From positions 1 to 6,299 of IMG/VR virus record IMGVR_UViG_3300045988_067657: a DNA stretch of 6,299 bases; one strand, written 5' to 3'. Positions 2,819-6,299 of the stretch are shown in pieces. How positions within the stretch are numbered: position 1 is the first letter of the stretch; every line of letters begins with the position of its first letter. Origin of the DNA: a virus. The translations under genes and the position numbers were made by a program. The notes beneath the pieces were generated by a model. The model was not told where the DNA came from, did not search any database, and saw only the letters and a list, made by a program, of their open reading frames with translations.

Positions 2819-3025
2819 TCAAACTAATTGAAAAAATACACGATTATCATACGAATAAATAATATCCGTAAAAGATATTTGAGGATGAACAAATGTATCT
2901 TTAATCAAACACACAAAATCATCAATATTATCAACAGAAACCGCATAATGTAAAACACGAGTTGTAGTAACATCAGTATAGGATATCACACAACGAAGAT
3001 ACTGAGATAACTTTTTCTTTTCCAT
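2819..3025 (-). CDS. Hypothetical protein (68 aa), first gene after the long noncoding region
   Basis: ATG at 3025..3023 and TGA at 2821..2819. It is on the same strand as all other genes and tightly packed against them. It shares the gene-start context AATTTTTGGCTTATG with VP2 and the 145-aa gene. I recognise no motif. Confidence 0.5.
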   Translation of the reverse strand: MEKKKLSQYLRCVISYTDVTTTRVLHYAVSVDNIDDFVCLIKDTFVHPQISFTDIIYSYDNRVFFQLV

Positions 3026-3091
3026 AAGCCAAAAATTTTATTTTTACATAAAAAATCTATATCAGAAACCTTAAGTAACTGATTTCGAAAG

Positions 3092-3099
3092 CAAAGATA
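3092..3099 (-). promoter_or_regulatory. Candidate Bacteroidota-type -7 promoter box TATCTTTG (TAnnTTTG) for the minus-strand transcription unit
   Basis: It is the only exact TAnnTTTG I found on the minus strand within the noncoding gap, 67 nt upstream of the ATG at 3025. There is no matching TTTG -33 element at the expected spacing. Confidence 0.2.
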
Positions 3100-3156
3100 A
3101 ACAATATTTATTTATAACCGGTATTATGTAAACGATTTTTAATTTACTTTTACAAT

Positions 3157-3170
3157 ATTTCACGTGAAAT
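3157..3170. promoter_or_regulatory. Perfect 14-bp palindrome ATTTCACGTGAAAT (candidate dimeric protein-binding site)
   Basis: The sequence equals its own reverse complement and is centred on CACGTG. It is flanked by imperfect extensions: ttac (3150..3153) and gtaa (3171..3174). Confidence 0.35.
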
Positions 3171-3272
3171 GTAAAGTTAGAGTTTACAAAAAGGGAGCGA
3201 ATGCCTTATACGTTGCGTCTAACGACCCTATTTTTACATAGTGTGTCAGTAATCGGATATGAGACAAGAGAT

Positions 3273-3298
3273 GGAGTGTTTGACGGAAGCAAACACCC
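3273..3298. other. Stem-loop gg(a)gtgtttg-acggaag-caaacacc(c)
   Basis: A 7-bp perfect stem (3276..3282 pairing with 3290..3296) with a 7-nt loop. It extends by two G-C pairs across a 1-nt bulge. Confidence 0.7.
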
Positions 3299-3317
3299 TT
3301 ACAGGGATTACGACCTT

Positions 3318-3352
3318 TCCGAGTTCCTATTAGTGTATGCTTGCGAGCCTAT
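3318..3352. repeat. Direct repeat copy 1 (35 nt): tccgagttcctattagtgtatgcttgcgagcctat
   Basis: Matches 3554..3588 at 33 of 35 positions. The mismatches are at 3320 (c versus t) and 3330 (t versus c). Spacing is 236 bp. Confidence 0.9.
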
Positions 3353-3365
3353 TGTTACTAGCGAT

Positions 3366-3411
3366 TAGGGGCGTTGCCCCTATAACCCCAGTTCCGCCTA
3401 GCGCGCGGAAC
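3366..3411. other. Two adjacent GC-rich stem-loops
   Basis: The first is ttaggggc-gtt-gcccctaa (3366..3382; 7 bp with a triloop). The second is gttccgc-ctagcgc-gcggaac (3391..3411; 7 bp with a 7-nt loop). Confidence 0.75.
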
Positions 3412-3436
3412 CGAGCGCGTTGTGCCTACCGGCGGT

Positions 3437-3464
3437 CTTCCTTTTGGCATTGCCCAAAAGGAAG
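3437..3464. other. Strong stem-loop (11-bp stem, 6-nt loop)
   Basis: cttccttttgg (3437..3447) pairs perfectly with ccaaaaggaag (3454..3464); the loop is cattgc. No U-tract follows on either strand. Confidence 0.85.
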
Positions 3465-3529
3465 CGAAAAGGCTAGTGTTTTTCATAGTATTGGAGCCTA
3501 ACGGGTTGAGTTTCCACGGCTGGGTTGAC

Positions 3530-3547
3530 GCATCCTTTTACGGATGC
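3530..3547. other. Stem-loop gcatcc-ttttac-ggatgc
   Basis: A 6-bp perfect stem with a 6-nt loop, lying just upstream of direct repeat copy 2. Confidence 0.7.
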
Positions 3548-3553
3548 TCACAC

Positions 3554-3588
3554 TCTGAGTTCCTACTAGTGTATGCTTGCGAGCCTAT
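3554..3588. repeat. Direct repeat copy 2 (35 nt): tctgagttcctactagtgtatgcttgcgagcctat
   Basis: See copy 1. Sequence identity stops abruptly on both sides. Confidence 0.9.
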
Positions 3589-3599
3589 GAGTGTATGCT
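3584..3599. repeat. Third copy of the 16-mer core CCTAYKAGTGTATGCT
   Basis: The three copies are cctattagtgtatgct (3326..3341), cctactagtgtatgct (3562..3577) and cctatgagtgtatgct (3584..3599). The last two are tandem with a 22-bp period. Confidence 0.8.
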
Positions 3600-3730
3600 A
3601 ATAGAGACAGGTCTAAAATTTAAAAATTCACGATTTAACAAATAATACAATTGAAAATAGTATAATGAAAATAAGAATAATGAATAAAGATAAAAGGATA
3701 GCTTTCTATTTTGTCAAGAAGAAAGCAACA

Positions 3731-3763
3731 AATAAAAAATGCGTCTACTGTAATAGTAGGCGC
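3731..3763 (-). terminator. Rho-independent terminator immediately downstream of VP2
   Basis: The minus strand reads GCGCCTACT-ATTAC-AGTAGACGC followed by ATTTTTTATTTGTTGC. This is a 9-bp stem (3741..3749 pairing with 3755..3763, one G-U pair) with a 5-nt loop and a T-run. It begins 8 nt after the VP2 stop codon. Confidence 0.7.
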
Positions 3764-3770
3764 ATAAGAA

Positions 3771-4970
3771 CTATTTAAAAGAACCTAACTTGAGAGGGTT
3801 AACCTGATTAAAAGTTTCACCAAGATTCCACATAAATCGACCTAAATAACCAGTACCAAACCATAATTTTTCACGATTATAGTTAAAATGCTGCTGAGTT
3901 TCCAACTGCTGGACACCTACTCTAATAGAACGCTCAAGATATTTGCTTTCAATACCAAAACGAGTTGATTCACGAGAATTCTGCTGAGTACGATACCAAT
4001 TTTGACTTTCAACAGAAGAAGCATTTGATAAAGATGTATTCCAAGAAGCCTTAGAACTAAGCCATGAAGCGTTAGCTGAAAGCATAGCAGCAGCCGCATA
4101 CTTAGCAGCAAGAGCTGTCTGTTTTTCTGTCCAATGTTGTTGCGCCTTCTGGTACGCAATTTCGGCAGTCATTTTGCCAATCGTCAACTGGGCAATATCA
4201 CGCTGAGCAGGCAAAATGAATTTGTTTGTAAAAGCCTTAGTAGCAACGTCATACTGAGAACCTACAGTCTGCAGATTTGCTTGAGCAACACGGGCATAAC
4301 TTTCTCGCTCTTGATTTTTGGTAATATTTATCAAAGATTGCATATTAGCATTATATAACTCATTAGCCATCTTTTTAGCTTGATTATCATATTCAAGACC
4401 TTGCACACGCTTAGTCATTGACAAAAGATTTTCTGTATTTTGTATCTGCAAAGCTTTAGTCTGTTCCAACTGATACAAATTACCGACAAATTGATTAGAT
4501 GCATTAGAAATCGCAGAGCCAAACTGCTGCGCACCTTGAGCCTTCATATTATACGCTTCCGCACCACTCTGTTGACGAGCCATATCAGTAGACATAAGTG
4601 ATTCGGCTTGACCAGAGTTGATATTACCTAACGCAAAATAAGGATTAATACCAGCTTCCTCATAGCGAGCACGCTGAGCGGCAGGCGAATTATAAGCATT
4701 CTGACGATTCCACTGTGCCAAATTCCAATCATTCTGATATTGAGCAAGTTTAAGATTAGCGGCATTTGTTTCGCGGGTAGCTTGTAAAGCAGCTTTCGCA
4801 GCAGCATCAGAACCCTGTTTTGCGGCAGAACCACCAAGTATTGAACCTGCAGCAGAAACGACAGGACCAATAATCGGAGCAGCTGAAATCAATGAACCGA
4901 GAAAACTATTTTTAAATTGATGAGGTAAAAACTCCGTATTACCAACATCCCGAAATCTAATATGTAACAT
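3771..4970 (-). CDS. VP2: Minor capsid / DNA pilot protein VP2 (phiX174 H-like), 399 aa from the ATG at 4970
   Basis: The track start at 4976 is a TTG; the ATG is at 4970..4968. The N-terminus has a Gly/Ala-rich hydrophobic segment (FLGSLISAAPIIGPVVSAAGSILGGSAA). This is followed by the conserved-looking block NAYNSPAAQRARYEEAGINPYFALGN and a long Q/A/N-rich region that looks like a coiled coil, as in microvirus pilot proteins. Stop is TAG at 3773..3771. Confidence 0.8.
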   Translation of the reverse strand: MLHIRFRDVGNTEFLPHQFKNSFLGSLISAAPIIGPVVSAAGSILGGSAAKQGSDAAAKAALQATRETNAANLKLAQYQNDWNLAQWNRQNAYNSPAAQRARYEEAGINPYFALGNINSGQAESLMSTDMARQQSGAEAYNMKAQGAQQFGSAISNASNQFVGNLYQLEQTKALQIQNTENLLSMTKRVQGLEYDNQAKKMANELYNANMQSLINITKNQERESYARVAQANLQTVGSQYDVATKAFTNKFILPAQRDIAQLTIGKMTAEIAYQKAQQHWTEKQTALAAKYAAAAMLSANASWLSSKASWNTSLSNASSVESQNWYRTQQNSRESTRFGIESKYLERSIRVGVQQLETQQHFNYNREKLWFGTGYLGRFMWNLGETFNQVNPLKLGSFK

Positions 4971-5473: not shown

Positions 5474-6299
5474 TTAAAGTAAAGGCTCATCAGAAACCGA
5501 CATAGGGCGAATAGCTTTAATACCAATATGAGAATCTACCAAAATAGGGTCAGTGTTGTCTTCACCATTAAAAGCAACCGAACAAATAGAGTTAAGAATA
5601 CATGGAGACACCTTTAAACTATACACATTAAAAGGCGACTCGCCTGTATCAAAAAGAATACCCGTATTACGTGGAGCAGTCCAAGCACTCAAAGAGCCAC
5701 CTGTACAAAACTGTCCATGAACTCTATCAATACCTGTTTTATACTCCAAATAACGGTTTTGGTAGCCGTAAACTCGCTGCTTCCAATCAGTAGAAGAAGT
5801 GTCATTCAAAGGGTTTAAACAAGAAAGAAAATAAGTATTAACGGGTTGGTGACCTAAACGGTCAAATTCAGGCTGATAAAACTGCTCAAAACTTAACTTA
5901 AAATTGTGAGGGTCAATACCAAAAGAATTATAATCGGCATCAGGAGTGACAGAAAATATTCCTATAATAATTCCGTGCTCTTTTGTATCAAACACAATAT
6001 GAGAATCATTAACAGAAGAAGCCTTGCCATAAACATCACCTGTTTGACCAAGAACCGTATTGTCTGCTTCCGTTCCTGACTGAGTATTAGCTGTAGTAAT
6101 GACTTCACCAATAGAAACAGGAGAAGAAGAACCACCAATATAAGTAGATTTCCAATCATCGTGAACACCACCAAAACCAAAACGATTACGTATCTGTTCG
6201 CCATATGAGCCATTACCACTCTGTTGTTGCAAACGATACAGTTTATCCAACGCAAAAGCGGCACGAATATTATGTACAGGAATAGCCATGGGTCCATTA
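5474..6299 (-). CDS. VP1: Major capsid protein VP1, C-terminal part (same gene as 1..1019; 6201..6299 duplicates 1..99)
   Basis: The track ORF 5474..6289 (MAIPVHNIRAAFALDKLYRLQQQSGNGSYGEQIRNRFGFGG...) is the in-frame continuation of the 1..1019 frame. The Met at 6289 is internal (equivalent to position 89). The stop is TAA at 5476..5474. Confidence 0.9.
   Translation of the reverse strand, partial: NGPMAIPVHNIRAAFALDKLYRLQQQSGNGSYGEQIRNRFGFGGVHDDWKSTYIGGSSSPVSIGEVITTANTQSGTEADNTVLGQTGDVYGKASSVNDSHIVFDTKEHGIIIGIFSVTPDADYNSFGIDPHNFKLSFEQFYQPEFDRLGHQPVNTYFLSCLNPLNDTSSTDWKQRVYGYQNRYLEYKTGIDRVHGQFCTGGSLSAWTAPRNTGILFDTGESPFNVYSLKVSPCILNSICSVAFNGEDNTDPILVDSHIGIKAIRPMSVSDEPLL
6201..6299. repeat. Second copy of the terminal overlap; the unit genome is 6200 bp
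   Basis: Identical to 1..99 with offset 6200. Confidence 0.95.

Follow-up and report, generated by a model that had tools for sequence, protein, structure and literature searches.

The noncoding region and its features

The window analysed here, the whole 6,299-nucleotide (nt) stretch of IMG/VR record IMGVR_UViG_3300045988_067657, is a circular microvirus genome with a unit length of 6200 nt and a terminal redundancy of 99 nt (positions 1-99 are repeated at 6201-6299). Its genes lie on the minus strand throughout and include Rep (VP4, 2614-1025), the Phage_F capsid and VP2 (4976-3771), the capsid and Rep marking it as a microvirus. Between the VP2 stop and the next open reading frame (ORF, 3025) are 745 nt, the sole long noncoding stretch of the genome, and within it lies a GC-rich, hairpin-dense island (3190..3602) that had been singled out in a first-pass annotation made from the sequence alone. 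We find that this island is real and strongly selected, and that it is most likely an unusually large, modular complementary-strand origin of a single-stranded DNA (ssDNA) phage.

The first-pass description of the locus held up on re-examination, including the identity of the genome as a microvirus. The longest ORFs in 3026..3770 encode 59, 55, 54 and 42 amino acids, confirming that none reaches 60. The G+C content is 66.7% at 3361..3420 (67% in the annotation), 48.9% across the island and 37.3% for the genome, compared with 22.0% in the flank 3026..3189 and 25.0% in the flank 3603..3770. All five stem-loops that had been named are present (3276-3296, 3366-3382, 3391-3411, 3437-3464, 3530-3547), and the island folded as DNA outfolds 100 of 100 dinucleotide shuffles on either strand (z = -3.06, -3.09). 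The VP2 terminator, a hairpin at 3739-3765 with a minus-strand T-run, and the promoter-like box, TATCTTTG at 3099-3092, were both recovered, and the island lies outside the gene transcription unit as described, after the terminator and before the gene promoter. Overlooked at that stage were a dif-like site 55 nt from the start of the island, 22-nt iterons flanking the core, and a temperate lifestyle.

The features of the region are listed below (L numbers are our handles for other genomes and contigs).

3092..3099, minus strand: Bacteroides-type -7 box TATCTTTG, promoter of the gene operon (pattern scan); outside the cassette
3105..3134, plus strand: dif-like attachment site (attP) TATTTATTTATAA-CCGGTA-TTATGTAAACG, by homology to provirus/host junction sites
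3143..3171, plus strand: conserved box TTTACTTTTACAATATTTCACGTGAAATG with palindrome TTTCACGTGAAA, between attP and the island; also in L002, L078, L092, L098, L055 and L152
3245..3314, minus strand: module A, a three-way junction of covarying stems with outer stem GTCAGTAATC/GATTACGAC
3318..3352, plus strand: iteron R copy 1, TCCGAGTTCCTATTAGTGTATGCTTGCGAGCCTAT (direct-repeat family)
3359..3365 with 3547-3553, minus strand: possible closing helix P0, TAGCGAT with CTCACAC (RNAalifold, both strands)
3366..3382, minus strand: hairpin P1, TAGGGGC-GTT-GCCCCTA, followed by conserved TAACCCC (37 sequences)
3391..3411, minus strand: hairpin P2, GTTCCGC-CTAGCGC-GCGGAAC, with compensatory G-C/C-G and C-G/T-A changes
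3424..3433, minus strand: mini-hairpin GCC-TACC-GGC (gene-sense GCC-GGTA-GGC, a C-G-closed GNNA loop)
3437..3464, minus strand: hairpin H3, CTTCCTTTTGG-CATTGC-CCAAAAGGAAG (117 elements)
3465..3475, minus strand: A-rich spacer CGAAAAGGCTA, whose A-run length follows the T-run and A-run of H3
3476..3493, minus strand: invariant tract GTGTTTTTCATAGTATTG (gene-sense CAATACTATGAAAAACAC), predicted to be unpaired between hairpins
3496..3504, minus strand: mini-hairpin GCCTAACGG (gene-sense CC-GTTA-GG, a C-G-closed GNNA loop)
3530..3547, minus strand: hairpin H5, GCATCC-TTTTAC-GGATGC, with gene-sense loop G....A (29 sequences)
3554-3588 and 3584-3599, plus strand: iteron R copies 2 and 3 (direct-repeat family)
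3739..3765, minus strand: VP2 intrinsic terminator hairpin followed by a minus-strand T-run, bounding the noncoding region

Read along the plus strand, the cassette consists of a variable module, R, P1, P2, three-pair hairpins, H3, the A-rich spacer, the tract, a mini-hairpin and H5. The general form of the tract is GTGTTTTTCAT(A/G)(G)GTATTG, and that of the H3 core is CTTTTGG-CATTGC-CCAAAAG, in which the loop CATTGC and the first two pairs are invariant. Module A contains a conserved tract of its own (GAGACAAGAG), the hairpin at 3276-3296 (GTGTTTG/CAAACAC) and a mini-hairpin at 3296-3306 (gene-sense CCCT-GTA-AGGG). Its stems covary in L001, L002, L004, L005, L081, L098 and L100, and in other clades its position is filled by another module, a long hairpin. 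The iterons (CCTATTAGTGTATGCTTG..., 22-nt period), one copy upstream and two downstream of the core, recur in L080, L082 and L088; a single related copy (CTATTATGTTGC) lies at an equal offset in L012-type genomes, and other lineages carry different repeats at the place of R. The possible helix P0 is weakly supported, with C-A or G-A mismatches in some clades. Outside the cassette, the -7 box TATCTTTG is found at an identical offset in L080, L001 and L082, and the box TTTACTTTTACAATATTTCACGTGAAATG, common to distant relatives, could be an operator or another protein-binding site.

Conservation and distribution of the cassette

Pieces of the island are present in six GenBank microviruses from pig faeces, and pattern scans of IMG/VR and metagenome assemblies, together with GenBank, gave 131 elements (117 distinct), mostly from the human gut. 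Position and orientation were constant in all of the first 23 genomes examined; the cassette is preceded by the VP2 terminator and followed by the small ORFs and VP4, a dif-like attachment site always bounding it on the side opposite the terminator, and GTGTTTTTCAT is antisense to the genes in every microvirus examined. The ~45 nt from H3 through the tract are near-invariant. Outside the window's own clade, the VP4 proteins of the carriers are 25-40% identical to that of the window, and their VP1 proteins ~27-47%.

Since GTGTTTTTCAT was a requirement of both collection scans, and the H3 loop a further requirement of one, the collected sets cannot themselves show the invariance of the block. 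It is independently supported by the GenBank relatives retrieved through BLAST or accession (L001-L006, L100), all of which keep the 11-nt core GTGTTTTTCAT, and by flanking columns outside the scan patterns, which are likewise conserved. No relative without the invariant tract was found; MT135373 has the tract too. Stem conservation in relatives, which the first-pass annotation had left to be checked, was borne out by compensatory stem changes in more than 100 other genomes. The cassette is not a vector or assembly artefact.

A scan of 185,579 species-representative bacterial genomes for the core hairpin plus motif gave a single match, on a microvirus-bearing contig of a metagenome-assembled genome (MAG), and a host copy of the core is therefore not detectable. 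The earlier proposal of a captured host or mobile segment thus stands as regards mobility, the cassette being modular and moving between replicons, but not as regards a host source.

Several individual sequences deserve mention. One 11.3-kb MAG contig (L099, CAVBFV010000077.1, binned as Lachnospiraceae) contains a full microvirus and part of a different second one, which points either to tandem or mosaic assembly or to mis-binning. In L100 (MT135373.1), H3 is replaced by a different hairpin, and the interval from VP2 to the tract holds nine 11-nt tandem repeats, CTACGAGCAAT, around a GC-rich palindrome (2407-2460, 2518-2560). An assembly redundancy similar to that of the window, of ~77 nt, duplicates the invariant tract in L005 (MT135455.1). 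L173 was a chance match inside a coding region.

Covariation and loop polarity of the hairpins

Over P1, P2, H3 and H5, all but three of ~975 stem cells are Watson–Crick, with up to four pair types per position. P1 shows up to four Watson–Crick pair types per position and nearly no wobble, and H5 four types per position and zero wobble. The 117 H3 elements comprise 22 distinct stem variants, every one of which is perfectly complementary (22/22). P2 has a conserved A.C, corresponding to gene-sense G.T, in 21 of 24 sequences; in the gene sense its loop holds C-GCTA-G, and its stem lengthens to 11 pairs including two G-T. The mini-hairpins covary as well, that at 3424..3433 appearing in relatives as CTC-TACC-GAG and GTC-TGCC-GAC, and that at 3496..3504 as GCCTAGCGG and GGCTAGCGC. 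This near-absence of wobble despite many compensatory changes is as DNA hairpins predict.

The loops are strongly asymmetric between the strands. Of the distinct triloops whose stems have 5 bp or more, 22 show TNC in the plus-strand reading (GNA in the gene sense) and none the reverse (binomial, 5e-7), and TNC accounts for 8% of triloops elsewhere in these genomes (Fisher, 4e-10 versus the island). Hexaloops follow the same direction, with T....C in 21 cases and G....A in 3 on the plus strand. The three-pair hairpins read GCC-GGTA-GGC, CTC-GGTA-GAG, GTC-GGCA-GAC, CC-GTTA-GG and CCC-GCTA-GGG in the gene sense, where the tetraloops GGTA, GGCA, GCTA, GTTA and GATA are all C-G closed and usually have a pyrimidine at the third position. 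C-G-closed GNNA loops with a third-position pyrimidine follow the rule for DNA mini-hairpins, rather than that for RNA GNRA loops. Microviridae package the mRNA-sense strand, and the strand that is folded with GNA and GNNA loops is therefore the virion ssDNA. Two other tests of strand gave no such signal: the choice of strand by minimum free energy (MFE) showed no preference, and 1x1 mismatches in a fold without G-U pairs were dominated by one homologous site, being roughly balanced when counted by distinct contexts.

A further regularity links H3 to the spacer. Of 107 strings found from H3 to the motif, one was a chance match, and in 94 of the 106 genuine strings the H3 T-run, the H3 A-run and the spacer A-run are equal in length (3/3/3, 4/4/4 or 5/5/5); three strings are off by one. 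With equal runs the spacer would be able to replace one arm of H3 in an alternative helix, making H3 a two-state hairpin. The equality implies either such an alternative helix or concerted templated mutation.

A second carrier of the cassette

The same cassette was found in six metagenome contigs of a ~10-kb replicon (L104, L124, L127, L184, L110, L162), which belongs to an undescribed family. Its genes encode a 265-amino-acid tyrosine recombinase (PF00589), an M15 peptidase, an Ig-domain structural protein and a 496-amino-acid protein. The last matches only a PHROG replication-initiation family and has no BLASTP similarity to VP4, and searches of Pfam, NCBIfam and PDB sequences left this putative initiator unclassified. 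The tract is co-oriented with the genes in the ~10-kb replicon and opposite to them in microviruses. Two contigs (L110, L184) carry two cassettes in tandem, and in L162 five 22-nt repeats follow the cassette.

Coding potential, known RNAs and transcription signals

ORFs of the island gave no match in Pfam or PHROGs. An ORF starting from a conserved gene-strand ATG (MKNTSL...) was rejected as protein-coding, since it crosses H3 in three frames and is interrupted by stop codons in close relatives; indels of 2 and 4 nt are also present in the island. ARAGORN detected neither tRNA nor tmRNA, and an Rfam covariance search of 10 sources returned no family at gathering thresholds, in agreement with the earlier reading by eye; permissive E-values on 3000-3800 gave chance-level hits only. 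No conserved Bacteroides -7 box (TAnnTTTG) lies upstream of the cassette on either strand. A plus-strand promoter was not found in the window clade, and a plus-strand -7 box at about -299, which mirrors the gene promoter within a palindrome, is confined to the L012 clade. The hairpin that follows the tract lacks a T-run, and no terminator was found there. The proposal in the first-pass annotation that the island is a phage-encoded structured noncoding RNA is disfavoured by these results (no Rfam family, conserved promoter or terminator), by the near-lack of G-U pairs, and by an orientation relative to the genes that flips between replicon types; the exact match to the FopS/GibS seed (below) leaves it a small probability.

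A candidate complementary-strand origin

We hypothesized that the island serves, on the viral ssDNA, as a cassette for a single-strand (complementary-strand) origin that the host recognises, and consider this somewhat more probable than all other accounts combined. Among the proposals of the first-pass annotation, that of a complementary-strand origin or primosome-assembly site has become the best supported, though it is unproven; it draws on the Watson–Crick-only covariation, the gene-sense GNA, GNNA and G...A loops, the transfer of the cassette among replicons whose initiators are unrelated, and the lack of a conserved promoter. An origin of this kind explains the position and noncoding nature of the island, its covariation, the loops on the packaged strand and the invariance across divergent phages, as well as the transfer between unrelated initiators, the tandem copies and the indifference to gene orientation. 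A core that is unchanged across divergent phages and can be swapped would be accounted for by a partner that is a host enzyme, rather than the phage Rep.

GNA and GNNA loops alone form extraordinarily stable DNA mini-hairpins, which occur at the complementary-strand initiation sites of G4 (GCGAAAGC) and of St-1 and alpha3 (GCGTTAGC), and also at RSF1010 ssiA and the N4 hairpin promoters (PMC13037366). In the mechanism that we propose, viral ssDNA would be coated with single-stranded DNA-binding protein after entry or after rolling-circle release, except at stable hairpins, many of them capped by GNA, GNNA or G...A loops. The fold would present the invariant unpaired tract 5'-CAATACTATGAAAAACACTAGCC-3' beside the invariant hairpin H3, and could be recognised by host primase, primosome or RNA polymerase; a primer would then be made, in or beside the unpaired tract, and the ssDNA converted to the replicative form. 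We infer the priming function, the enzyme and the start site from conservation, structure and context; a primase using 5'-CTA-3' in ...AACACTAGCC... would, speculatively, start the primer AGUGUUUUUCAU.

Several points weigh against an origin of this type. Both strands fold equally well (z -3.06, -3.09), and MFE gives no strand preference. The island (~400 nt, 8-10 hairpins) exceeds the characterised single-strand origins in size, and its likeness to known origins, by eye, amounts to one post-hoc match at 12/14 positions to the phiX174 origin spacer. Some helices (L003 and L078 types) have T-G pairs on the other strand, and in the ~10-kb replicon the proposed template strand would be antisense to the genes. 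G...A-closed loops also occur in RNA, and the loop data alone are compatible with a gene-sense RNA; the accompanying iterons and the nearby attP permit other DNA-level roles; and the exact identity of the tract to the FopS/GibS seed (below) has to be put down to coincidence. The conserved sequence 6 (CS-6, TAGCGT) of the single-strand origin (sso) type ssoA has a counterpart, TAGCG (the P2 loop CTAGCGC is one example), but it is read from the plus strand instead of the proposed template strand, and no recombination site B (RSB) signature of ssoA was recognised by reading.

Few phages are as abundant in the guts of humans and animals as microviruses, and to our knowledge nothing is known of how their single strand is first copied outside the phiX174/G4 group. 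The cassette offers a testable candidate for an origin recognised by Bacteroidales hosts. Its sequence can also mark this phage group and the corresponding proviruses, and it is a possible handle for Bacteroides ssDNA vectors.

The attachment site and temperate lifestyle

Junction mapping was restricted to contigs >20 kb. In contigs of 20-128 kb, the phage is integrated among Bacteroidales-type genes (a GH27-like glycosidase, an alanine/sodium symporter, components of a resistance-nodulation-division (RND) efflux system), and the provirus/host junctions are formed by sites homologous to the dif-like site of the window, which indicates that this microvirus group is temperate. The attP of L098 is ACATAAGGGACGTTATGTTAAC, and in L121 both attL and attR contain AAGGGACGTTATG. 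These findings fit the model of integration at dif-like sites of Krupovic and Forterre (PMC3091885). Contigs of 9-14 kb, among them L170 and L101, were also considered as proviruses and proved to be phage mosaics.

Since the junctions fall at the site homologous to 3105-3134, crossover does not take place in the island, which instead makes up the end block of the provirus, immediately internal to the attachment site. Two families of dif-like site (ATAACCGGTATTATGGTAAC and ACATAAGGGACGTTATGTTAAC) lie at -280 to -680 from the tract in constant orientation, and presumably correspond to different hosts. Many inter-genome alignments end precisely at 3132, on the XerD-arm side of the dif-like site, so that within the noncoding region the part towards the genes recombines independently of the part that holds the island. 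This shows the noncoding region to be a mosaic of dif-like attP, conserved box, candidate origin cassette and iterons, with recombination that is independent of the genes. If the cassette is an origin, the whole 745-nt region would be a combined control region for replication and integration.

Some microviruses recorded as circular in IMG/VR contain a host-derived insert of 100-200 nt flanked by direct dif-like sites, as in L061 (~-640 to -440 from the tract) and L012 (-683 to -551). In L061 the insert comprises two gene 3' ends, one from an alanine/sodium symporter gene and the other from a GH27 gene together with its terminator. The host DNA in these two genomes suggests imprecise or alternative Xer excision, or assemblies of circularised proviruses.

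Alternative explanations

The tract (GUGUUUUUCAUAGUAUU) is identical at 17/17 nt to positions 1-17 of the FopS (RF04319) consensus, the 5' seed R1', and positions 1-11 of the seed, the 11-nt core, are found in all members, the core being part of the scan patterns. FopS binds RbpB, and its seed base-pairs with the translation-initiation regions of susC (PMC11697453). The tract might therefore be an RNA-level mimic in the FopS/GibS-RbpB network, which we regard as unlikely. As a small RNA (sRNA)-like seed, a plus-strand transcript GUGUUUUUCAU... would be a phage FopS-like sRNA repressing SusC-type transporters; as a decoy, a gene-sense transcript AUGAAAAACAC... would soak up FopS/GibS or RbpB. 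Either could reprogram SusC-type transporters (receptor control, superinfection exclusion) or titrate sRNAs or RbpB, and if the seed identity proved functional, a gut ssDNA phage would for the first time be connected with the sRNA network of polysaccharide utilisation. By a rough estimate, the chance of an 11-17-mer matching one of the few known Bacteroides seeds is <1e-3; the hosts are Bacteroidales, no pairing is predicted for the tract, which lies between hairpins, and B. fragilis resistance to the sole isolated Bacteroides microvirus involves susC/susD phase variation (PMC13064476). However, the Rfam score for FopS is 19.6 bits against a gathering threshold of 56 (E = 2.3), no TAnnTTTG box sets a start at the G, and there is neither a terminator nor a promoter conserved on either strand. 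Stems that almost never contain G-U speak against any RNA role, and GNA and GNNA loops on the gene-sense strand against a plus-strand RNA in particular. The orientation relative to the genes also differs between the replicon types, so that read-through would yield seed-bearing transcripts in one type and decoy-bearing transcripts in the second. As for the decoy, the gene-sense complement simply reads like a susC-type or generic Bacteroidetes start region (ATGAAAAA..., ATGAAAAACAC), which explains the seed identity only partly. Set beside FopS/GibS, and prophage anti-sRNAs such as AgvB, the island has the 17-nt identity to the FopS seed and a decoy-like complement, but it scores below the Rfam threshold, lacks a sigma-ABfr promoter and a terminator, and places the seed in a 400-nt hairpin block that avoids G-U. 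Other IMG/VR matches to the 18-mer GTGTTTTTCATAGTATTG came from large phages (L008, L010, L015 and others), including a site between tRNA-like genes of a large gut phage, and from a high-GC tRNA-Glu spacer (L018). Such occurrences in tRNA arrays and FopS-like loci were rejected as support for an RNA role, as they represent ~11 independent lineages, about the number expected by chance.

Three other accounts place the role of the island at the DNA level or give it none. It is improbable that the tract and H3 form the recognition and nick site of VP4 (Rep), that is, a viral-strand (double-strand) origin with iterons that bind Rep. Such an origin would fit an H3 hairpin with an invariant loop and an invariant core beside tandem repeats that vary with lineage, as in geminivirus, circovirus and pMV158 origins (22-nt R in the window clade, 18 nt in L001, CTACGAGCAAT x9 in MT135373, 22 nt x5 in L162), and gene-sense TATGAAAAACACTA agrees with the phiX174 origin TATTAATAACACTA at 12/14 positions, a post-hoc comparison by eye within an AT-rich spacer. 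However, the same core serves replicons with initiators unrelated by BLASTP and microviruses with 25% identical VP4, and rolling-circle termination would delete tandem nick sites of the kind seen in L110 and L184. The R iterons do not track VP4 (L088 has window-type R and a VP4 27% identical), no CAACTTG/ATA-like nick motif is present, and the spacing upstream of the ATG varies by 0-2 nt. We give still less weight to the island as an accessory or structural part of an Xer integration module (cer/psi-like, or CTXphi-style folded ssDNA). It does lie 55 nt from the dif-like site, as the terminal provirus block inside the attachment site; in the ~10-kb replicon the cassette is ~0.8 kb upstream of the tyrosine recombinase gene; and the R element (CTATTATGTT...) resembles, by eye, a XerD-arm half-site. 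Yet the provirus junctions are at the dif-like site itself, not the island, the inverted second dif-like sites needed for CTX-type folding are rare (5/72 genomes), and Xer accessory sequences predict neither GNA-capped hairpins nor an invariant unpaired tract. A selfish mobile insertion (like a miniature inverted-repeat transposable element (MITE) or a palindrome-associated transposable element (PATE)) or captured host DNA, functionless for the phage, seems highly unlikely. The foreign composition, the 35-nt direct repeats on both sides in the window, and a modular cassette that occurs in unrelated replicons, sometimes tandemly duplicated, would suit it; against this stand the single match among 185,579 species-representative genomes, itself on a microvirus-bearing MAG contig, the fixed position and orientation in every examined microvirus, and strong purifying selection with compensatory changes, no relative without the tract having been found.

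Comparison with known systems

The complementary-strand origin that we favour can be set beside several known systems. The dif-like sites of Alpavirinae (BMV1-7; Krupovic and Forterre 2011) concern the same phage group and noncoding region, but the island adjoins the crossover site rather than being one. Compared with filamentous phages, the virus family differs, attP is a contiguous dif-like site rather than a folded inverted pair, and no promoter-mimicking hairpins were identified in the island; as in the M13/f1 intergenic region (IG) and CTXphi ig-1, hairpin-based minus-strand origin functions and repeats would be gathered in one region, and CTXphi ig-1 also holds an Xer/dif attachment site, as the region of the island does.

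The sso cassettes of rolling-circle plasmids are recognised by host enzymes and are host-specific. Unlike them, the island is carried by phages, is larger, and has neither RSB nor CS-6 found on the proposed template strand. Like ssoA, ssoU, ssoT and ssoW, and RSF1010 ssiA and ssiB, it is structured, noncoding, exchangeable between unrelated Reps and sometimes present in two copies. Exchange of this type was found between microviruses with 25-40% identical VP4 and ~10-kb replicons, all from gut samples, and the CCGAAGG mini-hairpin of RSF1010 ssiA is comparable to the mini-hairpins of the island.

The origins of G4, St-1, phiK and alpha3 and the primosome assembly (n') site of phiX174 differ in that no sequence similarity to those of G4, St-1 or alpha3 is evident by eye, and the island is 3-4x longer than these, with interchangeable modules. 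Its hosts are Bacteroidales, it is shared by very divergent phages and a second replicon type, and its priming role is one that we infer. Like them, it is a noncoding block on the packaged strand with a cluster of hairpins. The two-state switch that may operate at H3 recalls the switch from hairpin I to a mini-hairpin proposed for G4 in a review (PMC13037366). The mini-hairpins of G4 (GCGAAAGC) and of St-1 and alpha3 (GCGTTAGC) find their counterparts in CC-GTTA-GG, GCC-GGTA-GGC and C-GCTA-G of the island, with an unpaired conserved tract adjoining.

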